A DNA stretch of 64,000 nt, from positions 32,001 through 96,000 of IMG/VR virus record IMGVR_UViG_3300028837_000933. One strand, written 5' to 3'. The stretch is from a virus. A model generated the notes under the pieces. It did not search any database. It was not told the DNA's origin and saw only the letters and a program-made list of their open reading frames with translations. Below, one piece after another: positions 45,372 to 60,461 of this stretch (positions are counted from its first letter, which is position 1; each line of letters starts with the position of its first letter). Both the position numbers and the translations under genes were made by a program.

Positions 45372-45540
45372 TCTCTCATAACTAGGGTCTCTCCCTTGAA
45401 TCACAATCGGGACGGTTGGCCTTTTCCGCGTTTCGCGGGAATTGCCAACGGTCCCTTTTGTGGTGAGAGACCCAACCGCGGAACCGTCCTATTGTGGGTC
45501 GGTTCGGTCGGGTTTCATCACAAAAAGGGAGAGTGATACA

Positions 45541-45654
45541 ATGGAGTTGGTGGAAATGTTGGTCAATATGCAACCCGCGTTTCAGATTCTTCTGGGTGCG
45601 TTCGTGTTGTTGGTGGTTGCGGTTTGTCTGGAGTTGGTTGGTATGATGCGATAG
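45541..45654 (+). CDS. Cassette ORF: 37-aa single-TM peptide
   Basis: ATG after the repeat SD; hydrophobic. Confidence 0.6.
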   Translation: MELVEMLVNMQPAFQILLGAFVLLVVAVCLELVGMMR

Positions 45655-45815
45655 ACCAACCACCAAGACCCACAATAGAATAGAACCGAGAGACCCACAA
45701 TCGGGACGGTTGGCAATTGCCAACGGTCCCTTTTGTGGTGAGAGACCCAACCGCGGAACCGTCCTATTGTGGGTCGGTTCGGTCGGGTTTCATCACAAAA
45801 AGGGAGAGTGATACA

Positions 45816-46199
45816 ATGTCAGATTATAGGTTGTATTGTGAGATTGACGAAACGGTTTTGAGGGAGTTGGTTGCCAGTATTGAAACCGTGTCAATCCGCG
45901 TGCGTGCGGAACCCAACCCTATTCTACAATCGTTGGTTCCACTGGAGATTGTGGAATTGTCGCGGGAACGTGCGTGGTTGACAATCCATCGGATACCCGC
46001 AACCGGAACCGTCAACCGGTATAGTCCAGCCGTCAACGTGGACGTTCCCGGTTGGGTTGACGTGGATCGGTTGGGTTTGTTGGATTGTCTGGACGGTTGG
46101 GTCGGTTGCGGGATTGTAACCCTTTTTTCCACTCACGATGGAATAGGGTATGCTTCTGACGGTTGTTTTGACGTGGACGTTTCCGCGGAAACGTATTGA
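45816..46199 (+). CDS. Cassette ORF: hypothetical protein
   Basis: ATG after the repeat SD; stop at the next repeat. Confidence 0.7.
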   Translation: MSDYRLYCEIDETVLRELVASIETVSIRVRAEPNPILQSLVPLEIVELSRERAWLTIHRIPATGTVNRYSPAVNVDVPGWVDVDRLGLLDCLDGWVGCGIVTLFSTHDGIGYASDGCFDVDVSAETY

Positions 46200-46351
46200 C
46201 CAACCACCAAGACCCACAATAGAATAGAACCGAGAGACCCACAATCGGGACGGTTGGCCTAGGCCAACGGTCCCTTTTGTGGTGAGAGACCCAACCGCGG
46301 AACCGTCCTATTGTGGGTCGGTTCGGTCGGGTTTCATCACAAAAAGGGAGA

Positions 46352-46648
46352 GTGAGGTTCGACTACAATCCCGATGCTATTGGGACGTGTCAACGGGTTG
46401 GTATCTTGGTTCGACTATACCACGATGGGAACCATTATCTTGTATATGACCGTTGGGACGTGATTGACGGTCAATCGCAACCCGTTTTTCTCGCGGGTTT
46501 TGGTGGTCCCGATTATACAAGAAACGGTCAATTGACCTATTCCAGTATTGACCGTGTGACGCGTTTTCTAATGCAAAACGCGGAAAAGGTTGAATTGTGG
46601 TTGACCCATCGGAACCATATTGACGTCAAAACGCACGATCCACAATAG
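46352..46648 (+). CDS. Cassette ORF: hypothetical protein
   Basis: GTG start very close to the SD; stop lies inside the next repeat. Confidence 0.55.
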   Translation: MRFDYNPDAIGTCQRVGILVRLYHDGNHYLVYDRWDVIDGQSQPVFLAGFGGPDYTRNGQLTYSSIDRVTRFLMQNAEKVELWLTHRNHIDVKTHDPQ

Positions 46649-46785
46649 AATAGAACCGAGAGACCCACAATCGGGACGGTTGGCCTAGGCCAACCGTCCC
46701 TTTTGTGGTGAGAGACCCAACCGCGGAACCGTCCTATTGTGGGTCGGTTCGGTCGGGTTTCATCACAAAAAGGGAGAGTGATACA

Positions 46786-47223
46786 ATGTTGTTGGTTGAC
46801 GTACAATTGACGGTTGTTTTCCGGAACCGTCCAGTGATGCGGGACGTGAACGGGAAACGTCAAAAAAACCGGGAACGGTCGACGGGTGATAGGCGTGGTA
46901 TGATGCGGGATGAAACGTGGTTATGTCTCACGTGGAACCATGAAACCGGATTCAAGGTTGCGGATTGGACGTGGTATAGTGGTGGAAACAAACCCTATTG
47001 GAATAGGGAATATGGTTCCGGTGGTCAACGTGCGGTATATTCCTATAGGGACAATCGGTTGACCGCAAACCTAGATGACACGTGGATCACTGACTACCAA
47101 CCACGAAAACCCATCACTGACGCGTCAGTGAAACGGTTGTTTCGGGTTTGTCGAAAATACGGGATGATTGTCGCCTATCTTGGCGACGGTTGGTATACTG
47201 ATTGTGGTGACGTTTCGATATAA
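46786..47223 (+). CDS. Cassette ORF: hypothetical protein
   Basis: ATG after the repeat SD. Confidence 0.7.
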   Translation: MLLVDVQLTVVFRNRPVMRDVNGKRQKNRERSTGDRRGMMRDETWLCLTWNHETGFKVADWTWYSGGNKPYWNREYGSGGQRAVYSYRDNRLTANLDDTWITDYQPRKPITDASVKRLFRVCRKYGMIVAYLGDGWYTDCGDVSI

Positions 47224-47379
47224 CCCGCATCACTGACAATAGAATAGAACCGAGAGACCCACAATCGGGACGGTTGGCCTAGGCCAACGGTCCCTTTTGT
47301 GGTGAGAGACCCAACCGCGGAGCCGTCCTATTGTGGGTCGGTTCGGTCGGGTTTCATCACAAAAAGGGAGAGTGATACA

Positions 47380-47754
47380 ATGTTGTTTTTCGTGGATCGT
47401 GATATACTCGCGGAAACGTTCTATGGTGACGAGTTGGACGATTGGGACCACGTACAGTGGAACGTCAAGTATTGGGGAGAGTTGGTTATAATTCCCTACG
47501 CAAGAATAGGTCAAAAACGTCCCGCGTTCGGTGCGTGGACTATCCCGGTTTCCGTTTTGGAGAGTGCGGAAAACGTCACAATCGATTGTATGGAGTTGGA
47601 TACATTTTTGACCTATTCAAACGTGGAAAAACCCGGTTCGGGTTGTATTGTCGCGTTCCGTTCCGATGGAGAGGGAACCGTTTCCGCGGGTATTGTACGT
47701 CAATCCCGATGGAAACCTATACAAGACCCGTTTTGGTTCGACATTTCACCATAG
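47380..47754 (+). CDS. Cassette ORF: hypothetical protein
   Basis: ATG after the repeat SD. Confidence 0.7.
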   Translation: MLFFVDRDILAETFYGDELDDWDHVQWNVKYWGELVIIPYARIGQKRPAFGAWTIPVSVLESAENVTIDCMELDTFLTYSNVEKPGSGCIVAFRSDGEGTVSAGIVRQSRWKPIQDPFWFDISP

Positions 47755-47916
47755 CACGCACCCACAATAGAATAGAACCGAGAGACCCACAATCGGGACG
47801 GTTGGCCTAGGCCAACGGTCCCTTTTGTGGTGAGAGACCCAACCGCGGAACCGTCCTATTGTGGGTCGGTTCGGTCGGGTTTCATCACAAAAAGGGAGAG
47901 TGAGACGGTCCAAAAA

Positions 47917-48062
47917 TGAAACCGGTGCCGGATACGCTATTTTTCCATCGTTCCGCGATTGACGGTCCCAAAAGGAACGGGACCGAACCCGCAACCGTTG
48001 ACGCGGAAAACCCGCATCGGTTGAAACCCGTGCCGGATACGCTATTTTTCCATCGTTCCGCG
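47917..48062 (+). repeat. 41-nt direct repeat pair flanking a 64-nt hairpin-rich spacer
   Basis: 47917-47957 and 48022-48062 differ at one position. Confidence 0.85.
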
Positions 48063-48220
48063 GGTTGACCAACCACCAAGACCCACAATAGAATAGAACC
48101 GAGAGACCCACAATCGGGACGGTTGGCCTAGGCCAACGGTCCCTTTTGTGGTGAGAGACCCAACCCAACCAACCACGATCCACCAACCCAACCGCGGGAA
48201 CCGTTGACGGGTTGACCAAC

Positions 48221-48369
48221 GGGACCCAACCGCACGCGGGACCCTTGACCCTTTTTCCGGTCGGGACCCAACCGCACGCGGGACCCTTGACCCTTTTTCC
48301 GGTCGGGAACCCAACCGCACGCGGGAACCCTTGACCCTTTTTCCGGTCGGGACCCAACCGCACGCGGGG
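48221..48369 (+). repeat. ~42-bp tandem repeat, 3.5 copies
   Basis: Unit GGGACCCAACCGCACGCGGGACCCTTGACCCTTTTTCCGGTC. Confidence 0.9.
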
Positions 48370-48876
48370 AATCCGCGTCAATTCGGTTGAACGCACCCAC
48401 AACACAAAAACGGGTTACACCGTGCAAAAAATCCCGCACATTTCCGGTCAATTGACCCTTTTTTGGTGAGACCAACCAACCAAAAACAACCGGGTTGACC
48501 GATTTTTGGGTCAATCGTTCCGGTTCCTAGGTCAACGGTCCCTTTTTTGGCCAACCTGGTCGGTTTCCAACCACAACCCTTGGAGCTGGTTCCAACCCAT
48601 AGCGCGAGCGTGAGGGACTTACACCTGGTGGAATCGGGCTGGCGTTTGGAGCCGCCAGCCAAAACGGCGCTAGATTCTACACCAACCGCGGAGCGCGTGA
48701 GCGCACATCTGGCGCATCTTTTCCCACGTTTGGAGTCGATAGCACGGGGCGGTCAGCTGGCCACAGCTGGCGGTCCCTTTTCGGGTGAGAGAGTCGGTAG
48801 TCGGCTCAGGCCGCGCTAGGCTGGAATCGGTCCAGCTTTTCTACGCCGACTCACAACCACAGAGAGGGAGAGTGTC

Positions 48877-49086
48877 ATGGCATGCGGAATCCCGCTATAC
48901 GCGAGCGTGGCGCTGGAATATCCCACGTGCCCGCCAACCACAGCCGGGGACGATGGCCGCGGTTTTCCAGCGGCCGGCGAACCTGGTGACTGGCGAATTG
49001 GCGACCCGCTGGACGATGACGAGATCGGTATCCAGATGGGTGAGCCAATCGGGGTCGAGCACCTGGCTGGTATCGTGCTGGCGTAA
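48877..49086 (+). CDS. Cassette ORF: small acidic protein
   Basis: ATG after the repeat SD. Confidence 0.55.
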   Translation: MACGIPLYASVALEYPTCPPTTAGDDGRGFPAAGEPGDWRIGDPLDDDEIGIQMGEPIGVEHLAGIVLA

Positions 49087-49235
49087 CGCAAGCTGAGCAT
49101 CACAACAGAAAACGAGAGACCCGAATTGGGGCGAACCGGGACGGTCCGGTTGGTCCCTTTTCGGGTGAGAGAGCCAACCACCAACCGGGGTCGTCCCGGC
49201 TGGCCTGGTTCTCATCACCACAGAGGGAGGGAACG

Positions 49236-49583
49236 ATGTACAGCTATTGCGATGTGGAAACCTATTGGGTGCCAGTCGAACATGGTCCAACTCTCCAGCC
49301 AATGGCCGGGATGTTCTTGGCGCCGGACGGCTGGAATGCCCGAACGGTCAAAACGCCGCGACCCCATTGGGGCGGTGAGACGCTGCTGGAATGCACCGAT
49401 TGGGACAAGGCAGCCTTCCGCTTGCCAACGCGGCACATCGGCATCGAAGTCGCGATCAACGTGCGCATCACGGGCCACCGCGTCCACGTGTGGGACGGTC
49501 GCCATTGGGTGAGGACACGGATCACGTGGGTCGGGGACTGCGAGCCGGACAGCTATAGCGGCGGCTGGCTTTGCATCCGCTAG
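49236..49583 (+). CDS. Cassette ORF: hypothetical protein
   Basis: ATG after the repeat SD. Confidence 0.7.
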   Translation: MYSYCDVETYWVPVEHGPTLQPMAGMFLAPDGWNARTVKTPRPHWGGETLLECTDWDKAAFRLPTRHIGIEVAINVRITGHRVHVWDGRHWVRTRITWVGDCEPDSYSGGWLCIR

Positions 49584-49707
49584 AACACAACAACCGAATA
49601 CTCGCGAGAGACCCGAATTGGGACGGCGTGGCCTTATTCCACGTGGTCCCTTTTCGGGTGCCGGCGCCCCTGGTTCGGGCGTCGAGTACAGAGAGGGAGG
49701 GCATATC

Positions 49708-49938
49708 ATGGCAGCAGTATCGTACATGGCGCGTTTTCACTCGGGGCGTTTGCTCCGGCTGGTCGGCAAGCTGGTCATGGTCCAGCTGGCATACGGTGTG
49801 GCCGAGGGCACGCTGTCGGTTGACGGCGAGCTGGCCAATTGCGTTTACACCGTGACCGGATCTGGCACGCATCTGGAGTTCCGCGTGGAGAAGGTGCGGG
49901 ACGTGGAGTACAGCGAGCGCCTGGTGGTGCTCGTCTAG
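49708..49938 (+). CDS. Cassette ORF: hypothetical protein
   Basis: ATG after the repeat SD. Confidence 0.7.
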   Translation: MAAVSYMARFHSGRLLRLVGKLVMVQLAYGVAEGTLSVDGELANCVYTVTGSGTHLEFRVEKVRDVEYSERLVVLV

Positions 49939-50060
49939 CACAACAACCGAATACTCGCGAGAGACCCGAATTGGGACGGCGTGGCCTTATTCCACGTGGT
50001 CCCTTTTCGGGTGCCGGCGTCCGATCTGCTGACGCCGAGTACAGAGAGGGAGGGCATATC

Positions 50061-50444
50061 ATGGATAGCTTGGAATTGGGTGCCACGGCGGAGTTGCGCG
50101 TGCTGGTCAGGGGTTACAAGGGCCAGGACGGGCTCGATGTCCGGAAGTTCTACAATGGCAAGCCAACCAAAAAGGGTGCTTTTCTCTGCATCCCTGGACA
50201 GGCGGAGTTCGCCGTCAAGGCGCTTGGCCTGGTCCTGGCTGGCGAGAGCGCGGAAGAGGCGCTTCCCATCGATCGCGCCGCCAAGGGCACAACCAACCTG
50301 GTCGTGCGGCGCTTCGAGTTCAAGGGGATGGATGGTATCAGCATCCGGAAAGAGGGCGAGCGCTGGGGCAAGGGGATCTGGCTCAAGCTGGCTCAGGCCG
50401 AGTGGGCGTTCGGCGCGATGAAAGCCGCTCTGGCTGGCAAGTAG
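50061..50444 (+). CDS. Cassette ORF: tandem PC4/YdbC-like ssDNA-binding protein
   Basis: Two related halves, YKGQDGLDVRKFY..KPTKKG and FKGMDGISIRK..GKGIWL. Confidence 0.65.
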   Translation: MDSLELGATAELRVLVRGYKGQDGLDVRKFYNGKPTKKGAFLCIPGQAEFAVKALGLVLAGESAEEALPIDRAAKGTTNLVVRRFEFKGMDGISIRKEGERWGKGIWLKLAQAEWAFGAMKAALAGK

Positions 50445-50594
50445 CACGCATCACCACAACCGAATAGCGAGAGACCCGAATTGGGGCGAACCGGGATGTT
50501 CCGGTTGGTCCCTTTTCGGGTGAGAGAGCCAGTCACCCAACCGGGGTTGTCCCGGCTGGCCGCTGGGTCTCATCACAGAGAGGGAGGGATTGCA

Positions 50595-51266
50595 ATGGCG
50601 ATGCACAAGACGGACGAGCTGTATCTGGACGCGCTGCCGCCGTTTCCACACAGCGACGAGGAGTTCTACAAGATGGAGACCACGCGGGACGTTCCGACAT
50701 CGGCGCTGTGGTTCGAGCGCTGTGGTGACCATCTGGACGGTCGCAAGCTGGCAATCTGGCCACGCGAGCGGAGCGCGTGGAACGTGGTCCACAACGTCTT
50801 CTGGATGACGTTCTATCCGGACGGCGCTGTGGTCGGCGGCTATGGCACGCGGATCGAGGGCGTGGATACGCCGTACAACTGGCGCAGTCACATCGAGCAC
50901 CTGGCTCGCCGGAACGGCTACAAGGTGACGGAGCCGGGACGGAACCGGACAATCCGGGTGGACTGGCATCCTGGTGACGTGGTGGCCGTGGTGTTCAAGT
51001 ACATCGAGCGCCGCGAGACGCTGGACCAGTCGGAGTTGAACCGGCTGTACGACTACCGCCAGTTCTGGAACCCGCGGAAGGTGCGCAAGCTGTCGCTGTG
51101 GGTGGGCAGCGCGTGCCCTGGACAGCGCCAAGCTGGGCGCATAGCAACACAACAACCGAATACTCACGAGAGACCCGAATCGGGGCGGCTGGGCTTCATT
51201 CCCAGTGGCCCCTTTTCGGGTGCCGGCGCCCCTGGTTCGGGCGCCGAGTACAGAGAGGGAGAGTGA
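50595..51266 (+). CDS. Cassette ORF: hypothetical protein (apparent C-terminal frameshift; native stop probably 51144)
   Basis: ATG after the repeat SD; reads through the next repeat because of a TGGG duplication at 51099-51106. Confidence 0.6.
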   Translation: MAMHKTDELYLDALPPFPHSDEEFYKMETTRDVPTSALWFERCGDHLDGRKLAIWPRERSAWNVVHNVFWMTFYPDGAVVGGYGTRIEGVDTPYNWRSHIEHLARRNGYKVTEPGRNRTIRVDWHPGDVVAVVFKYIERRETLDQSELNRLYDYRQFWNPRKVRKLSLWVGSACPGQRQAGRIATQQPNTHERPESGRLGFIPSGPFSGAGAPGSGAEYREGE

Positions 51267-51623
51267 ATGATGGACGTCGAGACTACGGTTTGTCGGCTCA
51301 AAGCAACGCTGGTATCCAGCGAGGGTGAGAATCTCAGCGTCAAGGCTCGCGGTGACGGAACGCTGTCGGTGACAGAGCTTGACACCAACAACGCGTTCAC
51401 CACAACGCGGACGCTGGTCGGCGTGATCGTCTACGCGGCGGGCCGGAGCGTGATACACCGGGCTTCCGCGCTGGACACGCTCCGCGGACTGCGTGGCGAC
51501 AAGGCGGTCAAGCTGGTGGACGATGGCGAGGGCGCGTTGATTGGCTGGGAGTGCTCCGGCTGTCCCCATGGTGAGCACTGGCACGATGTGAGCGTGGTGC
51601 CAGCCGACATCACAACCGAATAG
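51267..51623 (+). CDS. Cassette ORF: hypothetical protein
   Basis: ATG after the repeat SD; CxxC near the C-terminus. Confidence 0.65.
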   Translation: MMDVETTVCRLKATLVSSEGENLSVKARGDGTLSVTELDTNNAFTTTRTLVGVIVYAAGRSVIHRASALDTLRGLRGDKAVKLVDDGEGALIGWECSGCPHGEHWHDVSVVPADITTE

Positions 51624-51725
51624 CGAGAGACCCGAAACGGGGCGGTTGGCCGATGGTGGCCGCGGTCCCTTTTCGGGTGCCGGCGCCTGGGGCTTAGGCG
51701 CTGGACAACAGAGAGGGAGGGTATC

Positions 51726-52106
51726 ATGCCGCACGGAATCAGTGGACTGTGTTTCGAGTTGGAAGTTGGCATATTCCGGCGAGCGTTGCTGGCCAACGTG
51801 TCGCGGAGCGTGTCGATCCTGGCTACGCACATCGGCAAGGCGCCAGTGATAATCCGGGACCTGGACTACAATCCGGGGATCGTGACGGAGCGCCGGATCG
51901 AGCGCAGCCAGATCGTGCTGTCGGTTGGTCGCATGGCTCTGGACAGCAGCAAGCTGCTGGGGTTCCTGGCCGGGATGGCCAACAGCGCACGCGTCCAGGT
52001 GGCCTACAACGCGGACAGCGAGCCGTGCATCACCGGGCTGTGCTGGGGCCAAAAGCGATGGCACACAATAGCCGACCTGGAGCCGTTCCAGTCGCCCGCC
52101 AGCTAG
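51726..52106 (+). CDS. Cassette ORF: single sliding-clamp-like domain
   Basis: FELEVGIFRRAL...GRMALDSSKLLGFL...VQVAYNADSEP resembles a DnaN domain pattern. Confidence 0.4.
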   Translation: MPHGISGLCFELEVGIFRRALLANVSRSVSILATHIGKAPVIIRDLDYNPGIVTERRIERSQIVLSVGRMALDSSKLLGFLAGMANSARVQVAYNADSEPCITGLCWGQKRWHTIADLEPFQSPAS

Positions 52107-52228
52107 ACTGGCGCACAACCGAATAGCGAGAGACCCGAATGGGGGCGAGCCGGGACGGTCCGGTTGGTCCCTTTTCGGGTGCCAGCGGCTTAGGGTTAGC
52201 CGTTGAGTACAGAGAGGGAGGGAGTAAC

Positions 52229-52552
52229 GTGAATCTCAGCATGGATACGGTATTGGACATCTGCAAGCGGTATGGCAAGCTGGGTTCGGCTGGTCAGGAC
52301 GTGCTGGAGTCGGCGTTGAACCGGGACCTGGGGTACGAGAACACAACGCCGTCCTTGGTGGAAGAGGCGCGGTCGTTCCTGGAGCTTCTGGCTGTCGAGT
52401 TCCCAGCTGAGGCTGGGGTGGCTTGTGAGGCTGAGTCCACAGCCGAGTACTGCGCCGAGTATCTGGCCAACGAACCGGAAGACGGCGAGGAGTGGGGCGA
52501 GTTGGAATGGACGGAATGGGGATTGGGCTGGAGTGGCGCGAGAGGCGGATAG
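52229..52552 (+). CDS. Cassette ORF: acidic hypothetical protein
   Basis: GTG after the repeat SD; Glu-rich. Confidence 0.65.
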   Translation: MNLSMDTVLDICKRYGKLGSAGQDVLESALNRDLGYENTTPSLVEEARSFLELLAVEFPAEAGVACEAESTAEYCAEYLANEPEDGEEWGELEWTEWGLGWSGARGG

Positions 52553-52697
52553 GACTGTTCATCCCTACCGTTCCCAACGGAATCACAACCGAATAGCGAG
52601 AGACCCGAAACGGGGCGGTTGGCCAACGGTGGCCAGCGGTCCCTTTTCGGGTGCCGGCGTCCGATCTGCTGACGCCGAGTACAGAGAGGGAGAGTGA

Positions 52698-53393
52698 ATG
52701 ATGGAGAGCAAGAGGGAAGTAGTTCACCTGGCCCTGATGGAAACCACGTGGCCGGACGCGCCGCACATCGGGAGGTGGTCGTACACGCTTGGCGACTATG
52801 CCGGGGAGTGCAGCCAGTTGTACCCGACAGCTGACGCGTGCGATGCCGCCCTGGAAGAGCTGATGCCGAAAGCTCGCTGGGACAGGCGGGTTGTCGTCTG
52901 CTGCAAGGTCCACCACGAGAGTGCAGATGTGGACGTGGTGACCGACTACAGCATCGCGGACGGCGAGGTCATCGGCGTACACCGAGTGGAGCCAGGCGGC
53001 TGGCTGCGCAAGGTGCAGCAGCTGCTGGAGTCGGCGGTCAACGCCGACCTGGCCGAAACGGAAGTCCGTCGACAGATGCTGCAAAGCGCCCGGTGGCCAC
53101 GGGCGGCGACCATCGCAAAGTTCTTGTACACCACAGACGGCGAGCAGGCGCTGTGGTTCGCCAACGCCGACCGCACACGGTTCGCGAGCGCCTCGCCGCA
53201 CCACGCGCACAACGTGATGGGGCGGGCCGTCACCACGTGGCACGAGAACGGAGACGTTGACACGCACGTCTGGATGCCCAAACCGTCGCTACAGTTCTGG
53301 GTGACGGGGATGGTGCTGTTCGTCAAGGTCAACTACGATCTCGATCCGGTGAGCCGGGAAGAGGTCATGGCCTGCATCACAGCGCCGGAATAG
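52698..53393 (+). CDS. Cassette ORF: hypothetical protein
   Basis: ATG after the repeat SD. Confidence 0.7.
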   Translation: MMESKREVVHLALMETTWPDAPHIGRWSYTLGDYAGECSQLYPTADACDAALEELMPKARWDRRVVVCCKVHHESADVDVVTDYSIADGEVIGVHRVEPGGWLRKVQQLLESAVNADLAETEVRRQMLQSARWPRAATIAKFLYTTDGEQALWFANADRTRFASASPHHAHNVMGRAVTTWHENGDVDTHVWMPKPSLQFWVTGMVLFVKVNYDLDPVSREEVMACITAPE

Positions 53394-53515
53394 GCGCCAG
53401 TACAACCGAATACAGAGAGACCCGAAACGGGACGGTTGGCCTATGGTGGTCGCGGTCCCTTTTCGGGTGCCAGCGCCAGCGGCTTAGGCGCTGAGTAACA
53501 GAGAGGGAGGGCAGT

Positions 53516-53815
53516 ATGACGGAATACGAGAAGGCGGTCGAGCGCACGGAGCTTGCGATGTTCGAGCTGGGCGTGGACGCGGGGTTCAATGAGCACGCGT
53601 TCTGCATCGGGCGCGATCAGGGCGACACCGAGATCAAGCTGTGGAGCGTCTACACTCCGCTGGCTGGCGGCGGCAAGCGGCGCATCACAACGGTCATGGG
53701 GCGCACGGAGCTTGAGGCTCAGGACAGAGCGTGGGACACGTTGAACCGGCCGGGGCGCGTGGCAATCGCGCTCGAGTGGCGCGACATGGGTTGTCGCGTA
53801 GAACCGAAAGAGTAA
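53516..53815 (+). CDS. Cassette ORF: hypothetical protein
   Basis: ATG after the repeat SD. Confidence 0.7.
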   Translation: MTEYEKAVERTELAMFELGVDAGFNEHAFCIGRDQGDTEIKLWSVYTPLAGGGKRRITTVMGRTELEAQDRAWDTLNRPGRVAIALEWRDMGCRVEPKE

Positions 53816-53917
53816 CACGAGAGATCCGAATCGGGACGGTGGCCAATGGCCGCGGTCCCTTTTCGGGTGCCGGCGCCTGGGGCTTAGGCGCTGGACAACA
53901 GAGAGGGAGGGTGTATC

Positions 53918-54148
53918 ATGGCCGGAAACGGCAAGCCAAGTCTCCGCTATAATCGGGGGCGCCGCGTGCTTCTGGACGCACGCTCAGCGCACTTTCAGCG
54001 GACGGGGCACAAGCGCATCCACGTGGGCTTGAACTACATCGAGTGCGAGGTCTGCAAGGCACACGCGCACCTGGATCGGTTCGCCCGGCAGCTGCTACAG
54101 CATGGCCGAGTGGGGCCGCTGTACCAGATTCAGCCAGCCGAGTTCTAG
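53918..54148 (+). CDS. Cassette ORF: small basic protein with H/CxxC motif
   Basis: ATG after the repeat SD. Confidence 0.65.
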   Translation: MAGNGKPSLRYNRGRRVLLDARSAHFQRTGHKRIHVGLNYIECEVCKAHAHLDRFARQLLQHGRVGPLYQIQPAEF

Positions 54149-54284
54149 CATCGGCGGCGGGACAGTAGCACAGAGAGACCCGAAACGGGGCGGTTGGGGT
54201 GCCGCAGAGTCATGGTCCCAACGGTCCCTTTTCGGGTGCCGGCGCCTGGGGCTTAGGCGCTGGACAACAGAGAGGGAGGGTATC

Positions 54285-54587
54285 ATGCGGAGAGTGTTCA
54301 AGGTCGCGGAGAAGGACGGCGACGAGATCAACGAGAAGGCGCTCCGGCTGGCCGCCAAGGCGCTCCGGCGTGAGCGTGACGGCGGTGCTCTGCTACGTGT
54401 CGGGCGGGACTACGAGCCGATGGAAGTGGAGCGGATCAACGTTGGCACGGAGTGCCGCGGGCTGATGGGGCGCACGCTGTTCCTGGAAGTCGTCGACGGG
54501 CGCAAGCGCGTACACAAGGTAGCCGCCGAGATGGTTCGGGGCGTCTACGTCTACGGCGGGACACGGACGGTCGAGACAGTCGAGTAG
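54285..54587 (+). CDS. Cassette ORF: hypothetical protein
   Basis: ATG after the repeat SD; the TAG overlaps the next repeat. Confidence 0.7.
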   Translation: MRRVFKVAEKDGDEINEKALRLAAKALRRERDGGALLRVGRDYEPMEVERINVGTECRGLMGRTLFLEVVDGRKRVHKVAAEMVRGVYVYGGTRTVETVE

Positions 54588-54673
54588 AGAGATCCGAAAC
54601 GGGACGGTGGCCAGCGGCTGCGGTCCCTTTTCGGGTGCCGGCGCAACACGCGCCGAGTACAGAGAGGGAGGGA

Positions 54674-55087
54674 ATGATGGAGACGCTACACTTTGCTATC
54701 GTGAGAGTCTCGCACAAGACGGACGGCGCTGTGGAGTGGTGTGCTCTGGTCATGGTGGAGCACACGAGCGCATGGGACCGTCCAGCGCGGTTCGAGTGGC
54801 AGGGGATCTATCCCACGCTGGCCAGCCTGGAGCGTGGACTCGCCAAGGTGTACCCTGGCTCAGAGTTGGGCAAGGGCCGTGGCCTAACGTTCATGGTACA
54901 CGTGACGCGCCACGACACCGACACCACCGACCGCATCCAGCGCTATCTGCTACCGCCGCCCGATGGCCGCGAGGTGGAAGTGCCGAGTCATGGCAACGAT
55001 GCCGAGATCACGATCCAGTCCTGGCTGCTGGACGAGGTCGTCCAGCGGAAGGCGCTGGCCTTCGATGCGGCGCGGAACGCGGAGTAG
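54674..55087 (+). CDS. Cassette ORF: hypothetical protein
   Basis: ATG after the repeat SD. Confidence 0.7.
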   Translation: MMETLHFAIVRVSHKTDGAVEWCALVMVEHTSAWDRPARFEWQGIYPTLASLERGLAKVYPGSELGKGRGLTFMVHVTRHDTDTTDRIQRYLLPPPDGREVEVPSHGNDAEITIQSWLLDEVVQRKALAFDAARNAE

Positions 55088-55187
55088 AGAGAGACCCGAA
55101 ACGGGACGGTTGCCACCGGCAGCGGTCCCTTTTCGGGTGCCAGCGCCAGCGGCTTAGGCGCTGAGTGACAGAGAGGGAGGGAGTATC

Positions 55188-55409
55188 ATGGCTGAGGAGT
55201 TGAAACGGGCGGAGCGGGTGTTGCGGACGAAGCTGGCTCGAATGTACAGAGTCTACGGTGAGGCTGTCATCCGGAAGGTCGCGGCCGTGGAGTTCTTGGG
55301 CGTGGTGGACGGGTTCTACCAGTTCCAAGTGGAGTTCGAGCGAGAGTTGCTTCCCCAGTTCTACGAGGTGCGCTTGTACGCCAAGAGCGCCAGGGTGTAC
55401 AGCGCCTAG
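55188..55409 (+). CDS. Cassette ORF: hypothetical protein
   Basis: ATG after the repeat SD. Confidence 0.7.
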   Translation: MAEELKRAERVLRTKLARMYRVYGEAVIRKVAAVEFLGVVDGFYQFQVEFERELLPQFYEVRLYAKSARVYSA

Positions 55410-55501
55410 AGAGACCCGAGATGGGACGGTGGCCAATGGCCGCGGTCCCTTTTCGGGTGCCGGCGCACTGCGCCGAGTACATCACAGAGAGGGAGGGTAT
55501 C

Positions 55502-56269
55502 ATGGGTAGACGCGAGATGCTCAAGAGGGACGCGGGCGTCCGGTTCCTGTATCTGGTCTCCGAGAAGATTCTGGAGACCTACGAGATCAAGCACTGGCCA
55601 AGCGTCATGCGGAACCGCAAGACCAGTCTACACCGACGCCGGAACGGGACGAGCCAGCTGCTGTTCAGCTGGTCCAACGTCCAGCGGCAGTGGTACTGCG
55701 GAGCCAGGGAGTACAAGACGGTGGCCAGGGCAATGCGCGAGGTCAACGAGCGCTCAGAGCCTGGCTGGCACGCACTCCGGCAGGTCCTGCTCCACGAGTG
55801 CGCCCACGCGCTTCAGTATGAGGTGCCGAACGGGCGGACGCGGGGCAGCATCCACAACGAAGTGTTCATGGCCGAGTACCGTGCTCTGCTGGAACGCTAC
55901 GATCTGGATCGGTGCCTGACGATGGCTGGTCTCACGCTGGACAGCAAGCCGCCGTGGGAAGAGCCGAAAGTGGAAGAGCCAACCACCGCACAGACATCGT
56001 TCATCGCACCCAAACCGCAGACAGAACTGCTCATCGGACGGATCAAGATCAAGGAAAAGGCGCAGTTCTGGTCAGCGAGACAGCAAAAGGACGGCAAGAT
56101 CAACCTGTCGTTCGGCCGCAAGTACTACGCTAAGATGACGTCGACGGAGCGCCAGCTGCTGCTCGAGTACTGCATGGCCACGATGCGGAAGTCGCTATTC
56201 CGCGTGCCGATCCCGCCCGACCTCCGCGGCCAGTACCTGGCGCTGAGGCTGCGAGTGGGCGGCTGGTAG
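55502..56269 (+). CDS. Cassette ORF: SprT-like zinc metalloprotease
   Basis: VLLHECAHALQ...HNEVF (HExxH plus a downstream H). Confidence 0.7.
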   Translation: MGRREMLKRDAGVRFLYLVSEKILETYEIKHWPSVMRNRKTSLHRRRNGTSQLLFSWSNVQRQWYCGAREYKTVARAMREVNERSEPGWHALRQVLLHECAHALQYEVPNGRTRGSIHNEVFMAEYRALLERYDLDRCLTMAGLTLDSKPPWEEPKVEEPTTAQTSFIAPKPQTELLIGRIKIKEKAQFWSARQQKDGKINLSFGRKYYAKMTSTERQLLLEYCMATMRKSLFRVPIPPDLRGQYLALRLRVGGW

Positions 56270-56369
56270 AGAGACCCGAGATGGGACGATGGCCCGGCCT
56301 GGGCTGTGGTCCCTTTTCGGGTGCCAGCGCCAGCGGCTTAGGCGCTGAGTAACAGAGAGGGAGGGCAAT

Positions 56370-56678
56370 ATGGAAACGGCGGACTTGGGGTATGGAACCG
56401 TGCTGGCGCTCAAGCCAACGGGACGGCACGCGGACGTGTTCCAGCAAGTCATCTTGATCAGCGATGGCAGCGCTGTGTTCCCGCGAGGCGAGGAGACGCG
56501 GTTCTTCGGTCTTTTCGTAGACGACTACGAGCAGCCAACGAAGTATGGGTTGGCCAACGTGTACGTCCCGGAAGAGGCGGAAGAGCGTGTCGGTCAAGTC
56601 GAGGAAACGCAGGTGCCGATCATGGTCGTTGATGCCGGCTTTGGCTGGCCTGGACGACTCACACCGAAGGAGGGCTGA
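56370..56678 (+). CDS. Cassette ORF: hypothetical protein
   Basis: ATG after the repeat SD. Confidence 0.7.
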   Translation: METADLGYGTVLALKPTGRHADVFQQVILISDGSAVFPRGEETRFFGLFVDDYEQPTKYGLANVYVPEEAEERVGQVEETQVPIMVVDAGFGWPGRLTPKEG

Positions 56679-56679
56679 G

Positions 56680-56841
56680 ATGGCATTCGATCCGAGATAC
56701 AGACCGCGCCCCGAGAACTGGGGCAAGCTGCACACCGCGCTCAAAGCTGGCGATGAGGCCAAGGCTGAGCGCATCCTCCGCACAATCGAGGCCGAAACCG
56801 AGCTGATGATACGCGAGGCAGAGGCGTACAAGGGCGACTAG
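56680..56841 (+). CDS. Second ORF in cassette (53 aa)
   Basis: AAGGAGG SD; ends at the next repeat. Confidence 0.6.
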   Translation: MAFDPRYRPRPENWGKLHTALKAGDEAKAERILRTIEAETELMIREAEAYKGD

Positions 56842-56930
56842 AGAGATCCGAAACGGGACGGTGGCCAGTGGCCGCGGTCCCTTTTCGGGTGCCGGCGCAA
56901 CACGCGCCGAGTACAGAGAGGGAGGGAGAT

Positions 56931-57341
56931 ATGGTTTTCCATGTGAAGCAGTACGTCTTGATGCGGCTGCTGTCGAATTGCCGCGTCAGGGCGCCGTGGA
57001 TGGACACGATCCGTCTGCACGCCATGCACCCGCAAGACCTACATCTGGTGAGGCTGGATCTGTTCGTGGAGGACGCGGGCGGCAACGTGGATGGTATCGG
57101 CATGATGCACACTATCGAAGAGTGCTACGACACCGTACACGTTGACAGTCCTGGCGCTGTCCTGGTCAGCTTGCACGAGCTGGGCAACGTGGTTCGTCAC
57201 CACGCACCCGACCAGTACGTGACACTGGCGCTGTACGAGAAGGGCGAAGAGCGCGTCATGGTGAGCATCGGCAATGGCCATCCGAAGTATGTGGCCCGCA
57301 TCGATGCGAGCACGCTCCGCACCTTGCCAGATGCGGAGTAG
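56931..57341 (+). CDS. Cassette ORF: single sliding-clamp (DnaN domain I)-like protein
   Basis: MVFHVKQYVLMRLL...PGAVLVSLHELGNVVRH. Confidence 0.5.
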   Translation: MVFHVKQYVLMRLLSNCRVRAPWMDTIRLHAMHPQDLHLVRLDLFVEDAGGNVDGIGMMHTIEECYDTVHVDSPGAVLVSLHELGNVVRHHAPDQYVTLALYEKGEERVMVSIGNGHPKYVARIDASTLRTLPDAE

Positions 57342-57444
57342 TAGGAGAGACCCGAAACGGGACGGTTGCCACCGGCAGCGGTCCCTTTTCGGGTGCCAGC
57401 GCCAGCGGCTTAGGCGCTGAGTAACAGAGAGGGAGGGAACAGTC

Positions 57445-58089
57445 ATGGAGATGAAGTGGAGTCACGAGATGTCCAAGCTGACGCTGGTCATCGAGACGGA
57501 ACAGGGCGCCATCACAGATCCCGATGAAGTGCTACGCGCCGCCGAGGTCATCTTGATGACGGCGGTCAGCCATCTGGAGCCGGACACGGCGCCCGAGATC
57601 GTGCAGCGCGTGATCGATCACGTCACCACCACCAACGATGCCATCGAGAGCGGCGACTGGAGTGGCGAGGCTGGACCAGACGAGTGCGACACGTGCTACA
57701 ATCTGCTGGACAGCCACGATGGGTGTGTGTTCTGCGACCAGGACGAACCCGATCCGCCGCCACGCGAGTACCGCAAGGTCAAGCAAGGCGACACGGTGCG
57801 GTTCGCCCACAAGCTGGGCTACGAGGTGACGGCTGTGGTGGTCGGCAAGCGGTTCTACGCACACGCAGCGGACGCGTCCAGCATCACCGTGTACAGCGCT
57901 GACCACGGCACGCTGTACGGTCTCTCGCTGGGCGCTTACGAGATTCTCGCACAGCCGGACGATGCGACCCGCGAGAAGAAGTTCGTGGAGGCGGACGAGA
58001 ACTACAAGGCGCATCTGAAACAGTACGGGATCTGGGCGGCCAGATTCGAGCAGGAGCCCGACTACCGATTCTTCGAGTGGGAGGGCTAG
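57445..58089 (+). CDS. Cassette ORF: hypothetical protein with CxxC..CxxC zinc ribbon
   Basis: CDTC...CVFC. Confidence 0.7.
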   Translation: MEMKWSHEMSKLTLVIETEQGAITDPDEVLRAAEVILMTAVSHLEPDTAPEIVQRVIDHVTTTNDAIESGDWSGEAGPDECDTCYNLLDSHDGCVFCDQDEPDPPPREYRKVKQGDTVRFAHKLGYEVTAVVVGKRFYAHAADASSITVYSADHGTLYGLSLGAYEILAQPDDATREKKFVEADENYKAHLKQYGIWAARFEQEPDYRFFEWEG

Positions 58090-58188
58090 ACGAGAGACCC
58101 GAGATGGGACGGTTGCCACCGGCAGCGGTCCCTTTTCGGGTGCCAGCGTCCGATCTGCTGACGCTGAGTAACAGAGAGGGAGGGTATC

Positions 58189-58734
58189 ATGGGTAAGAGG
58201 TATCGAACGATCAACCTGGGCTGGGGCGCGGGTGAGCGCCGCTACGTCCGCCATGCGCTGGAGTCGACCGAGACCGGAATGCTCCGGCACCAGTTCAAGG
58301 TGTCAGACGAGGAGTGGGCCGCCAAGGTGAGCCCGACACCCGCCAGCGTGCGCCGCTTGCTTCGCGTGCTGGTCAAGAACGGCTGGAGCATCTGCGCCGA
58401 GGGAATGCTCAAGCCGGAAGTCGCCAAGGGCCGCGTGTGCGGCAACAACGCGCCCCGCTACGTCCACGTTGACTACAACGACTACGATGGCCGCGAGCAG
58501 CTGGTGCCGCCGCGCTGCTACAGCCGGACACCACCGCCCTGCGTCCACGAGGGCGTCCACGTTGACCAGCCCCGCGCCGTGACGGAGTTCGAGAACGTCA
58601 CCCAGGCATCCGTGGGCCGCATCCTGGAGCTTCTGGACGAGGACGATGTGACAGTCTGGGCGGCTGTGGAGCCGTCCGTCACTCGCGTCCAGTTCCTTGG
58701 CTACGTGCCAACGGGCGAGGAAGAGGACGCTTAG
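58189..58734 (+). CDS. Cassette ORF: hypothetical protein with internal duplication
   Basis: KVSPTPASVRRLL and NVTQASVGRIL; a similar ITDASVKRL occurs in 46786..47223. Confidence 0.7.
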   Translation: MGKRYRTINLGWGAGERRYVRHALESTETGMLRHQFKVSDEEWAAKVSPTPASVRRLLRVLVKNGWSICAEGMLKPEVAKGRVCGNNAPRYVHVDYNDYDGREQLVPPRCYSRTPPPCVHEGVHVDQPRAVTEFENVTQASVGRILELLDEDDVTVWAAVEPSVTRVQFLGYVPTGEEEDA

Positions 58735-58821
58735 AGAGACCCGAAACGGGACGGTCAGCCTAGCTGGCGGTCCCTTTTCGGGTGCCGGCGCAACGCGCCG
58801 AGTACAGAGAGGGAGGGAGAT

Positions 58822-59199
58822 ATGCTGTTCACAGTGAGACAGAACTACCTGTTCCGTATGCTGGCGGATGCCCGCCGTACCGTGCCGTTCCTGGAGCGGG
58901 TCACGCTCAGCGCGGAGTACGTTGGCAACGGACGGGCAAAGCTGACGATGACGTTTCTCGATGACGAGATGAGCTTGTCGCACAAGTTCTCGACTGAATG
59001 CACCGTGCGCATCGAAGTGGAGGGTGCGTGCAGCGCGGACGTATCGGAGCTTGCCGACTTTGTCGGCCAGTGCAAGCCGACTGAGCACATCGATGTCAGC
59101 TTGCTAGGCAGCGATGCCGGCGACCGCCAGGTGTTGGTGTCCTCTGGCGGCTACGGGAACGCGATCAAAGGCGAGCGCGTCATGCTGATGCGTGACTGA
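58822..59199 (+). CDS. Cassette ORF: single sliding-clamp (DnaN domain I)-like protein
   Basis: MLFTVRQNYL...PFLERVTL...LTMTFLDDEMSL...EGACSADVSELADFV...VLVSSG. Confidence 0.6.
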   Translation: MLFTVRQNYLFRMLADARRTVPFLERVTLSAEYVGNGRAKLTMTFLDDEMSLSHKFSTECTVRIEVEGACSADVSELADFVGQCKPTEHIDVSLLGSDAGDRQVLVSSGGYGNAIKGERVMLMRD

Positions 59200-59296
59200 G
59201 AGATCCGAAAACGGGACGGTTGGCCTAGGCCAGCGGTCCCTTTTCGGGTGCCGGCGCCCCTGGTTCACGCGCCGAGTACAGAGAGGGAGGTGTGTG

Positions 59297-59635
59297 ATGA
59301 TGAAAGTACGTGTTCGCCAGAAAGCGCTGGTCGCTGCTCTTGCAGACGCGGCCAGTTCGAGCCACGTCCAGCTGGAGGCCACGCGTCCGCATCAGCTGGC
59401 CGTGACGGGGCCGGAGGGTGACGTGAGGTACATCGGGCGATGCTTCTACGAGTGTTTCACGGAGCGTGTCGGTTCCGTCACCGTCTCCGCCAACAAGTTG
59501 CTGGCCGTGCTCGATGAGTGGATGCGGTGGGACTACGTGACTCTGCTCGCATCGCCAGTGCTGGGCGGTTGGATGCTCGTGAGCAACGAGCAGACCAACG
59601 AGGCCAAGGCCATCAAGCTGGCCAGCTACAGCTAG
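59297..59635 (+). CDS. Cassette ORF: single sliding-clamp-like protein
   Basis: MKVRVRQKALVAAL...GSVTVSANKLLAVL. Confidence 0.55.
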   Translation: MMKVRVRQKALVAALADAASSSHVQLEATRPHQLAVTGPEGDVRYIGRCFYECFTERVGSVTVSANKLLAVLDEWMRWDYVTLLASPVLGGWMLVSNEQTNEAKAIKLASYS

Positions 59636-59744
59636 GAGAGATCCGGAATCGGGCGTGTCAGTTCAACGTTAGACTGATAGGCCCGTTTTCGGGTGCCAGC
59701 GCCCGCTACCACGGGCGTTGAGTATCACAGAGAGGGAGGGTACG

Positions 59745-59948
59745 ATGGAAGGGCATGAGCATGACGACACGGACCTGTGCGCCTGTGGCGCGGATCTGCT
59801 CGAGGCCATCACCAATGGCTACGCGCACTACGCCTACACCGAGGGCACGTTCACGATCGAATGCTACGAGTGCGGCCTGGAGATCGAGGTCGAGGCCGAG
59901 GCGCACGTCACGTTCAAGGTGACGGTTCCGAAGGAGAGTGCGACATGA
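59745..59948 (+). CDS. Cassette ORF: acidic zinc-ribbon protein
   Basis: CACG...CYECG. Confidence 0.7.
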   Translation: MEGHEHDDTDLCACGADLLEAITNGYAHYAYTEGTFTIECYECGLEIEVEAEAHVTFKVTVPKESAT

Positions 59949-60307
59949 GAGAGTTTCTCAAGAGAGAGGTGAGGGGTGAGCGCCCCGCCGAGGCGCCCGA
60001 TGGCTGGATCGTCTACAACGCGCCGCGTCCCATCTGGGGCCACACGAAGTGGCAAGGCGACTTTGTGACTGGCGTGTTCTACGCGGCTGTAGATCCCGAG
60101 ATGGACGATGCGGACGAGATGGTCGCCCACAACCAGCTACAGCACGCGGCCGAGCTGACGTTCATCAGCGAAGAGGAATGGCGCCGGCGCGTCGAAGAGT
60201 ACGGTCGAAAGATGTCGGCGGAGTACGAGATCAACCTGGACGACTTCGAGTGGGCCGACATAGAGGCCAGCTACGCCAACTGGCTCCGGCAGGAGCACGA
60301 AACGTGA
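59945..60307 (+). CDS. Second ORF in cassette: acidic hypothetical protein
   Basis: ATGA overlap and AAGGAG SD. Confidence 0.65.
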   Translation: MREFLKREVRGERPAEAPDGWIVYNAPRPIWGHTKWQGDFVTGVFYAAVDPEMDDADEMVAHNQLQHAAELTFISEEEWRRRVEEYGRKMSAEYEINLDDFEWADIEASYANWLRQEHET

Positions 60308-60384
60308 GAGATCCGAACCGGGACGGCTACCCTGTCAAGGGGTGGCGGTCCCTTTTCGGGTGCCGGCGCAAGACGAGTCGCCGC

Positions 60385-60412
60385 TTGCCGTTCTGCACGT
60401 TTTGTGTATAAT
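60385..60412 (+). promoter_or_regulatory. Sigma70-like promoter embedded in the last repeat copy
   Basis: TTGCCG-16-TATAAT. Confidence 0.55.
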
Positions 60413-60461
60413 GGACACGGTTGGCGCGGAGCGCCGAGTAATCACAGAGGGAGGGAGAAAC

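Follow-up and report, generated by a model that had tools for sequence, protein, structure and literature searches.

The IMG/VR virus record IMGVR_UViG_3300028837_000933, a single contig of 121,820 bp with an estimated completeness of 87%, contains an operon of short genes in which almost every cistron is preceded by a copy of the same composite element, made of two hairpins (P1 and P2) followed by a Shine-Dalgarno (SD) box. The window, the whole stretch of 64,000 bases analysed here, comprises bases 32001-96000 of that record, and positions are given relative to it unless stated otherwise. Minus-strand late genes, including those for tape measure, head morphogenesis, protease and large terminase (TerL), occupy positions 1-44300, and plus-strand genes begin at about 45400, run past the end of the window and continue through the first 28.9 kb of the record, where they include genes for DnaB, a beta clamp, ParB-like proteins, a C5 methylase and an amidase. 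The array of elements therefore opens the rightward non-structural transcription unit and adjoins a divergent control region. The sequence is carried by four sequencing runs of one study, labelled marine sediment metagenome, of which two cover most of the stretch; no RNA data set is listed as containing it, and the runs were compared as contigs.

Repeat number and subfamilies

A search for the core of the element, GGTCCCTTTTNNGGTG, with at most two mismatches gave 32 matches, all on the plus strand between 45450 and 60362, against 0.53 expected and a maximum of three in 100 shuffled sequences; there was none elsewhere on either strand of the 121,820-bp record. The 32 cores represent 29 full elements (e1-e6 and e10-e32), one truncated element (e7) and two degenerate cores (at 48453 and 48537), and the repeat described in the initial annotation is therefore real. 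Full elements of about 100 bases recur every 300-850 bp, each leading into an SD box and then an open reading frame (ORF). A covariance model built from 19 copies recovered 28 copies at 42.9-108.1 bits, e10 at 32.3 bits and e7 in part, and found nothing above 18.8 bits in the rest of the phage.

Two subfamilies are distinguished by a dinucleotide in the core. The GT type comprises seven cores between 45450 and 48138, six of them exact, in near-identical copies with a long P2; its five full copies that can be listed from box A (a conserved motif at the foot of P1) to the start codon, e2-e6, are nearly the same sequence. The CG type comprises 23 cores between 48772 and 60347, of which 21 are exact over 16 nt, mostly with a short P2. 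In a record-wide scan box A, the SD box and the frame of P1 were confined to the array with two exceptions, both beyond the 64,000-base window: one SD box at window-relative position 80673 (record base 112673) and one reverse-strand box A at window-relative position 76857.

Architecture and RNA fold of the element

Each element follows the order upstream stop codon, optional leader, box A, 5' arm of P1, variable tip or loop, core, P2, SD box and start codon. The succession of hairpin, hairpin, SD and start is fixed in all 29 full copies, which agrees with the modular expression unit proposed in the initial annotation. Box A reads GAGAGAYCC, the P1 5' arm (G/A)A(A/G)A(C/T) GGGRCG, the aligned core GGTCCC TTTTCGGGTG and the aligned SD box (A)CAGAGAGGGAGG, with ACAGAGAGGGAGG as the extended SD; the start codon, ATG or, in two copies, GTG, lies 2-9 nt past the SD box. 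The same annotation had noted that the upstream stop codon often lies in the first bases of the element, which holds for 13 of the 27 copies measured (-2 to +3 nt from box A), the other 14 having a leader of 9-45 nt. It had also treated the core as a spacer between the hairpins, which has to be corrected, as the core is the 3' arm of the lower stem of P1, where ACCCGAAA is paired to UUUCGGGU and GGGAC to GUCCC.

From its base, P1 consists of the ACCCGAAA/UUUCGGGU helix, a C·U (or 2x2) mismatch, the GGGAC/GUCCC helix, a G·G mismatch and a variable tip of 6-8 bp. Folded alone, it has arms of 20-23 nt in 26 of the 29 copies (the exceptions in length being e1, e10 and e21), 17-21 bp, loops of 3-8 nt and a free energy of -30 to -39 kcal/mol. 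P2, a hairpin of 7-10 bp, follows after 0-2 nt. The minimum-free-energy folds of 27 of 27 copies contained both hairpins and left the SD unpaired, and all eight copies tested for significance had z-scores of -3.4 to -6.1, with none of 200 shuffles as good.

Compensatory change is widespread in these stems. In an alignment of 28 copies, 99.2% of the 644 cells are paired and 14 of the 23 base pairs have changed on both sides, which none of 500 shuffles equalled, and sliding the partner by one to three columns reduced pairing to 40-55%; these figures lean towards structure because the alignment was fitted to the model, and an independent analysis with MAFFT and RNAalifold found double changes in nine of the 23 pairs. 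The subfamilies themselves compensate each other, GT in the core going with AC in the 5' arm and CG with CG. The CG-type core GGTCCCTTTTCGGGTGCC.GCG is invariant in 17 of the 19 aligned copies, and the two that differ, e15 and e31, are compensated in the 5' arm. The pairing of P1 also runs past its U run (ACCCG/CGGGU), and the GT type keeps this extension by a double change (CCACAA/UUGUGG). Such a covarying extension would be useless for termination and indicates that P1 matters in RNA that is read through.

The 28-copy alignment contains 52 G·U cells and five non-standard cells. The fold is selected on the gene-sense strand, because the opposite strand would have an A·C mismatch wherever this one has a G·U; the covariance model scored minus-strand P1 at no more than 27.1 bits, compared with 42.9-108.1 bits on the plus strand. 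A sense-strand fold fused to an SD box makes RNA the obvious medium, and the element is very probably an RNA-level cis element for the expression of each cistron.

Operon boundaries and promoter-like sites

The operon spans from promoter-like sites at about 44831 and 45364 to terminator-like hairpins at about 61265-61353. The initial annotation had delimited the array as 45402-60461; the unit from promoters to terminators reaches past these coordinates, from about 44831 to 61353. The first plus-strand site (44831..44860), found by a genome-wide pattern scan and by reading of the sequence, consists of TTGGAG, a spacer and TGGTATAAT, and the second is a -10-like motif, GGTATAAT (45364..45371, plus strand), 27 nt before e1 and in the same GGTATAATTCTC context as the first. 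In the whole record there are only 15 occurrences of the consensus TATAAT. Two canonical terminator-like hairpins follow the last operon gene on the plus strand, one with a 9-bp GC stem and the tail TTTTGTTTTG (61265..61296), the other, found by scan and reading, with CGCGCG..CGCGCG followed by TTTTTTT (61333..61353).

An element stands before each cistron including the first, coupled second genes aside, and none follows the last gene. Of the 32 operon genes 29 bear an element, and the earlier statement that almost every ORF is preceded by one needs qualifying only for three second genes (56680-56841, 59945-60307 and 60652-61248), which are coupled by overlap or by an SD of their own. A promoter scan of 19.9 kb returned 12 sites where 5.3 were expected. 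Four of the six leaders of the GT block are promoter-like (45652, 46196, 47745 and 48065; TTGACC, 18 nt, TAGAAT, with 9-10 of 12 matches), which puts box A near a possible transcription start. Inside CG-type elements the only promoter-like sites are at 53892, a chance match over the start codon of e20, and at 60385, in an insert in e32.

Individual copies along the array

All copies lie on the plus strand. The first, e1 (45398..45543; GT type), identified by its fold and a model score of 42.9 bits, has a P1 arm of 31 nt and an inverted box A, GGGTCTCTC, at 45385-45393 in place of the forward box A. The following GT-type copies are e2 (45688..45818), with a long P2 and recognised by alignment, fold and covariance model; e3 (46232..46354), which in the window lacks the usual ATACAATG start and has a longer start in the contigs of runs X1 and X2; e4 (46658..46788; z -6.1), in which the G·G mismatch becomes a pair through the core variant CGTCCC; e5 (47252..47382), recognised by alignment and fold; and e6 (47780..47918), recognised by these and by the run contigs. 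The GT block ends with e7 (48101..48153; model positions 7-51, 29.2 bits), a truncated copy with box A, P1 and core and without P2, SD and gene. In the core scan the two degenerate cores (48453-48468 and 48537-48552, two mismatches each) fall in the non-coding junction of the GT and CG blocks. This junction also holds a 42-nt unit repeated 3.5 times in tandem with 97% matches (48220-48368).

The first CG-type copy, e10 (48738..48879; 32.3 bits), is without box A and has a short P1 with 14-nt arms. A long P2 is found by alignment and fold in e11 (49114..49238; GAGAGAGCC...) and e14 (50469..50597). Between them lie e12 (49606..49710; z -3.4) and e13 (49959..50063), which module comparison showed to share the P1 of e12 and to differ in P2. 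The core variant GGCCCC of e15 (51168..51269), seen in the core scan, is compensated by GGGGC in the 5' arm. Next come e16 (51625..51728; z -3.4), e17 (52128..52231; alignment and fold), e18 (52598..52700), which by module comparison has a P2 identical to that of e13 behind a different P1, and e19 (53415..53518; alignment and fold). The P2 of e20 (53819..53920; z -3.8) is identical to those of e16 and e21, and e21 (54173..54287) has a longer apical part in its P1 fold. In e22 (54587..54676) the upstream gene has a stop codon overlapping box A, according to the measured stop gaps.

The highest model score, 108.1 bits, belongs to e23 (55089..55190; z -4.0), which is followed by e24 (55409..55504) and e25 (56269..56372), both defined by alignment and stop-gap measurement, and e26 (56841..56933; z -5.7). 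Module comparison showed that e27 (57345..57447) has the P1 of e23 and a P2 one base off that of e23, that e28 (58092..58191) combines the P1 of e23 and e27 with a compensated variant of the P2 of e13 and e18, and that e30 (59198..59299) has a P1 apical part that is nearly GT-type; e29 (58734..58824; z -4.3) lies between the latter two. The most divergent copy, e31 (59636..59747; z -5.8), has the core GGCCCG, compensated in the 5' arm. In the last copy, e32 (60306..60464), promoter scan and fold revealed a P2 loop enlarged by an insert with a promoter-like site (TTGCCG, 16 nt, TATAAT; 60385-60412, plus strand).

Gene content of the operon

The cistrons themselves are almost all unrelated to one another, as had been noted before: all-vs-all BLASTP of 31 ORFs found one related pair, c26 and c29, and an origin of the genes by tandem duplication was rejected on this result. 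The fraction of G and C at third codon positions (GC3) is 0.67-0.86 in CG-type ORFs, 0.76 in TerL and about 0.5 in GT-type ORFs, and CG-type ORFs are resident genes since their GC3 resembles that of TerL. A Pfam scan of 30 array products gave no match for 27, and nothing bears out the host-takeover or anti-defence roles suggested earlier. The product of c13 (50061-50444) has a PC4-type single-stranded-DNA-binding domain (Pfam E 1.8e-7, above cut-off), that of c24 (55502-56269) an HExxH motif and a weak SprT-like Pfam match below the cut-off, and that of the last ORF, listed as 60553-61248 and re-called as 60652-61248, weak membrane- or holin-like Pfam matches. For c18 there was no relative among 1.84 billion representative proteins.

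The ORFs c16 (51726-52106), c26 (56931-57341), c29 (58822-59199) and c30 (59297-59635) form one family of 112-136 aa. An AlphaFold model of c26 (pLDDT 70, pTM 0.68) is similar in Foldseek to the sliding clamps PCNA, T4 gp45 and beta clamp (E 1.5e-4 to 3e-3, TM 0.42-0.62), and on the strength of this model the four proteins look like single clamp-domain proteins in a phage that also has a full beta clamp.

In a contig of run X2 a 29-nt insertion after 51101 would shift the frame of c14 onto a TAG at 51142. The apparent read-through of e15 by c14 would be explained by this insertion, provided that the inserted letters hold no in-frame stop. Pfam and PHROG scans of 38 larger proteins revealed no polymerase, recombinase or nuclease tied to the element. 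The search for PF00940, which would have pointed to promoters of a phage RNA polymerase, gave no match and is uninformative, since the control matched in no genome either.

Exchange between copies

P1 and P2 have been reassorted between copies. The same P2 stands behind different P1 in e13/e18, in e16/e20/e21 and in e19/e25/e27, and the same P1 stands before different P2 in e12/e13, in e20/e24 and in e23/e27 compared with e28; when classes are set by a crude cut-off on similarity, one pair of P1 classes and one pair of P2 classes are found in all four combinations. Copies have thus repeatedly exchanged parts, at break points in or close to the core. We regard the reassortment as homologous recombination or gene conversion between repeats, for which a site-specific system is neither required nor shown, and recombination between copies could also delete, duplicate or swap the intervening genes. 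Judging by the sense-strand G·U pattern and the built-in SD, the function is primarily one of RNA, and recombination seems to be a by-product of the repeats.

The array had also been called integron-like and taken for a recombination unit in which cassettes are acquired and shuffled. The copy-to-copy reassortment fits a recombination unit, but contigs of the four runs contained no cassette-level joint, only two joints inside the GT-type repeat and small indels. The left sides of these joints (45544 to 46356 and 45546 to 47904) lie in sequence common to every GT-type copy; their interpretation as cassette loss was rejected, and they were read as longer start regions of c03 and c06 (46344-46356 and 47892-47904). 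The contig differences may be small deletions at repeats in the window assembly or may reflect a mixed population, and uncovered stretches in runs X3 and X4 carry no meaning.

The initial annotation was right that recombinase genes and attC ends are lacking, and the rest of the genome adds none: tyrosine recombinases (PF00589) had no match in the 121,820-bp record, compared with 14 of 14 control genomes, and serine recombinases (PF00239) none, compared with 12 of 14. Among 27 copies RYYYAAC was found in seven and GTTRRRY in two, and both boxes stood in attC order in one. With no integrase, attC boxes, relatives or cassette-level variants, the term integron-like is unsupported.

Searches for related elements

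The element matches no Rfam family. Rfam covariance models had no match at gathering score in the 64 kb and, at E <=1 over 45300-60700, one at chance level (mir-128, E 0.82). A megablast search of 50,697 phage records with the 15-kb array as query found no match. Across viral contigs the core 16-mer matched once in each of seven contigs, and in genome contigs an 18-mer gave seven single matches in unrelated taxa; a two-box pattern was absent from viral contigs and from genome contigs of 185,579 species' genomes. In metagenome contigs a pattern of 14 specified bases occurred in at least 119 stretches, and none of the loci screened among the matches listed had two of the three companion boxes (box A, GGGAC or AGGGAG beside the core). 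One locus with two matches (L015) proved to be an unrelated AT-rich repeat.

The covariance model, which had been suggested as a check and which recovers the array copies, reached at best 20.4 bits on 79 loci of terminase relatives (927 kb) and 19.5 bits on five whole related virus records. No comparable repeat family was found in a 109.6-kb related record, in the 19.6-kb stretch on the corresponding side of the terminase gene, and a k-mer screen of the 79 loci returned only tandem repeats and one shared ribosome-binding-site motif. Scans for close relatives with TerL, c27 and c24 found nothing. A literature search yielded no description of the element and brought up only analogues (T7, PeSL, SAS/ESAS and attC).

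Comparison with known systems

Comparison with these analogues shows that the element is a distinct, unusually regular form of an already known kind, represented by the RNase III sites of T7, promoter early stem-loop (PeSL) elements and the start-associated sequences (SAS) and extended SAS (ESAS) of mycobacteriophages; of the analogies proposed earlier those with T7 and PeSL hold and that with integrons does not. In the early operon of T7, whose map includes the sites R0.3, R0.5, R1, R1.1 and R1.3, an RNase III site precedes the first early gene. The array resembles this operon in its tandem host-type promoters, long early transcript and terminator at the end, and in the irregular hairpin of about two turns, with internal loops, before each cistron. 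It differs in the number of copies, 29 in 15 kb against 5-10, in being unrelated in sequence and unmatched in Rfam, in the fusion of P1 to a second hairpin and an invariant extended SD, in a 3' arm complementary to the SD and in reassorted modules; cleavage, established for T7, would here be by analogy. T7 has ten RNase cleavage sites in its polycistronic transcripts, which the RNase III of the host processes (PMC6938266).

Like the PeSL elements of T4-type phages, the element is a composite intergenic repeat of about 100 bp that ends in SD and start codon and flanks ORFans in a plastic early region, with recombination between copies (PMC2839356, PMC4122927); homologous exchange between repeats has been proposed for PeSL (PMC2839356). 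In a PeSL a strong sigma-70 promoter comes after a terminator stem-loop, whereas CG-type elements have no promoter-like site except the e32 insert and the chance match in e20. Unlike in PeSL, the hairpin here lies in the transcribed leader, and its covariation shows selection on RNA structure.

The SAS/ESAS of Cluster K mycobacteriophages likewise place an SD box near the starts of many non-structural genes in one orientation, about half of them with an imperfect inverted repeat with a variable spacer upstream; the gene families are unrelated and no function was assigned (PMC3203893). According to the same text, SAS is a 13-bp motif, 5'-GGGATAGGAGCCC, 3-7 bp before the start and scattered over half the genome; the box here is ACAGAGAGGGAGG, hence a different family, and the element lies in one uninterrupted operon. 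In that text SAS is without a second hairpin and without a 16-nt core, and it reports no covariation analysis (PMC3203893).

The attC sites of integrons and of integrase-less arrays (CALIN) are, like P1, imperfect palindromes with variable tips between single promoterless ORFs. Such CALIN arrays have reportedly been found in phage genomes. The array here differs from them in having no integrase and no R''/R' boxes, in a sense-strand fold fused to an SD and in the absence of visible cassette mobility. Unlike repetitive extragenic palindromic (REP) sequences or miniature inverted-repeat transposable elements (MITEs), the element occurs in a single orientation and has no copies in the genome and viral contigs searched by the two-box pattern.

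Proposed function and alternative explanations

By analogy with T7, the element may be an intercistronic processing or stability hairpin fused to a standard ribosome-binding leader, the reading we favour, with slightly less than even weight. Host RNA polymerase would start at the two promoters, read through all copies and stop at the terminators at 61265-61353, possibly early in infection. The transcript would fold at each element into P1, of about two turns with two conserved 1x1 or 2x2 mismatches, an abutting P2 and an unpaired SD. P1 would be the substrate of a host double-strand-specific endoribonuclease of the RNase III type, its internal mismatches would limit the cut, and the long transcript would be divided into messages of one or two genes. 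A protective hairpin would then close every upstream message, and P2 with a strong ribosome-binding site would open every downstream one.

The two-turn length of P1, its internal mismatches, the stacking of P2 and the T7-like layout lead to this reading. The substrates of RNase III from Escherichia coli usually have two helical turns, to which coaxially stacked short helices can add length, and internal loops restrict the enzyme to one strand and leave a protective 3' hairpin, according to PMC1540722. The helix of P1 has the dimensions of a T7-type RNase III site: its 17-21 bp, interrupted by mismatches, lie in arms that measure 20-23 nt in 26 of 29 copies although tips and loops differ, and P2 abuts it.

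Several observations weigh against processing. The RNase III domain PF14622 had no match in the phage record, compared with eight of 14 control genomes, and an enzyme of the host must be assumed. A nuclease that measures length would need far less constancy than box A and the core show, which suggests that a sequence-specific reader acts as well or that there is a second pairing. One candidate for the latter is available: once the 5' arm is absent, core UCCCUUUU can pair with GAGAGGGA of the SD box, enclosing P2, and a double-strand cut in P1 might therefore silence the downstream gene. The apical part of P1 was scored as terminator-like in more than 25 copies. Finally, e1 lies at the 5' end of the primary transcript, which would fit a pure role as a 5' untranslated region (UTR) without cleavage equally well.

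The alternative pairing could itself be the function, with the core acting as an anti-SD that switches the cistron off when the 5' arm is removed or occupied, whether by a nuclease cut, by a phage protein on box A or by a ribosome stopped at the abutting stop codon. Early genes would then be controlled across the whole operon, a mechanism that could coexist with processing. In 27 of 27 copies GGGAG is predicted to be unpaired with a probability of 0.54-0.97 in the full element and of 0.08-0.43 in a fragment starting at the core, the core of the GT type is complementary to the stretch before the SD over about 13 bp, and the upstream stop lies -2 to +3 nt from box A in 13 of 27; helix length alone, moreover, leaves the invariance of box A, core and SD box unexplained. 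Yet the core-SD helix has no compensatory changes, CCC and UUUU never varying; in the CG type it has just 8 bp, two of them G·U, the composition of a pyrimidine run lets it pair with any SD, and the GT-type stretch before the SD may be a diverged copy of the 5' arm. P1, moreover, has by far the greater stability (-30 to -39 kcal/mol) and is the first to form as the RNA is transcribed. As the helix shows no covariation and its pyrimidine run would pair with any SD, we keep the switch as a rival or an addition and consider it unlikely. The terminator-like scores raise the further idea that P1 copies are leaky intrinsic terminators or attenuators resembling the PeSL stem-loop, giving graded expression or responding to a phage antiterminator. 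The GC-rich inner stem of P1 is followed by UUUU and preceded by an A run, the region contains 47 terminator-like hairpins where 19.0 are expected, more than 25 of them being P1, and the sigma-70-like sites in four of six GT-block leaders (TTGACC, 18 nt, TAGAAT) suggest that some cassettes may restart transcription. However, the inner stem continues into UUUUCGGGUG with four contiguous U before CGGGUG, compared with the U-rich tract of about 7-9 nt of an intrinsic terminator and the tails of 7-8 U at the operon end, and the pairing past the U run is conserved and covaries. With few promoter-like sites, 29 terminators in series would starve the distal genes, and where such sites are present they lie upstream of P1 and place it in the 5' UTR. 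Termination as the function is accordingly decidedly unlikely.

Three further explanations act on DNA. The invariant core of 16-22 bp could be bound by a sequence-specific protein, for instance a repressor like that of the stoperators of mycobacteriophage L5, which lie between genes in one orientation; the comparison draws in part on PMC3203893. The core is invariant in 17 of 19 aligned CG-type copies and exact in 21 of 23 while its pairing partner varies, and all copies have one orientation; but binding leaves the covarying stems, the sense-strand G·U bias and the fixed link to the SD unexplained, the core changes between subfamilies with compensation in the 5' arm, and no candidate binding protein was identified, making such a site quite improbable. 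An integron-like or other site-specific system, in which P1 recombines as single-stranded DNA with a recombinase encoded elsewhere or by the host, would be consistent with P1 as an imperfect, loosely attC-like palindrome with conserved mismatches and a variable tip, with one or two ORFans per unit, with the reassortment of P1 and P2 around the core and with a record that is only 87% complete. Against it stand the lack of PF00589 and PF00239 in the record, attC-order boxes in one of 27 copies, a sense-strand fold fused to an SD, the absence of cassette-level joints in the run contigs and the lack of a second genome with the element, and we hold it highly improbable. The same low weight falls to a selfish MITE- or REP-like element that has spread into intergenic gaps. 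Its many copies with constant ends and the near identity of e2-e6 would suit such an origin, but the copies keep to one orientation and one operon, each fits exactly from stop to start and supplies an SD, no copies were found elsewhere in the phage, the two-box pattern was absent from 185,579 species' genomes, the seven single 18-mer matches were unrelated and the proteins scanned include no transposase. A self-cleaving ribozyme or other known RNA was rejected for want of an Rfam match, although the element may represent an undescribed class.

A broader proposal would join processing, exchange and switching, making the element a plug-and-play cassette adaptor in which the leader standardises processing, stability and ribosome binding, the boxes serve as homology for exchange without a recombinase and the core, as anti-SD, switches off 29 cistrons by one event; taken as a whole, this is improbable.

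If P1 is a processing site, the array would be the densest natural intercistronic processing array known to us, with 29 sites in 15 kb, and a natural counterpart of the insulator parts of synthetic operons, with a standardised translation leader on each site. The array would, moreover, illustrate how orphan early genes in a long series are expressed by a phage that is possibly of Chloroflexota. Reassorted P1 and P2 modules provide a substrate for the study of repeat-driven gene shuffling without a dedicated recombinase, and the covariance model can be used to find the element in new viromes.

Phage affiliation and composition of the control region

The closest relatives of the terminase have identities of 47-54%, and some come from bins named by their source as Chloroflexi or Anaerolineae, one from a Planctomycetaceae bin. 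The phage is possibly of Chloroflexota, on the basis of the source names of these few relatives at about 50% identity. ARAGORN found no tRNA in the window. The two ends of the record (bases 1-200 and 121621-121820) share a similar, non-identical stretch, which could represent ends of paralogous genes or an imperfect overlap of the termini.

Positions 44016-44640, immediately upstream of the early promoters, contain dozens of AAACCGTGTG / AAACCGTGAG repeats with a period of 10 bp, and periods of 25 bp and 73 bp as well. This field has a strong skew of A over T and could be an origin or a helically phased protein-binding field. Across 44000-48400, which covers the control region and six GT-type cassettes, the dinucleotides AG, CT and GC occur at 0.55, 0.44 and 0.42 of expectation, unlike in the CG-type array and the left 42 kb, where the ratios are about 1.0. 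The GC content of this region is about 0.51, compared with 0.60-0.64, and GCAGC, GCTGC and CTGCAG have no occurrence in 4.6 kb. This bias may reflect avoidance of restriction sites in the DNA that is first expressed or first to enter the cell, or may be the mark of a foreign block.

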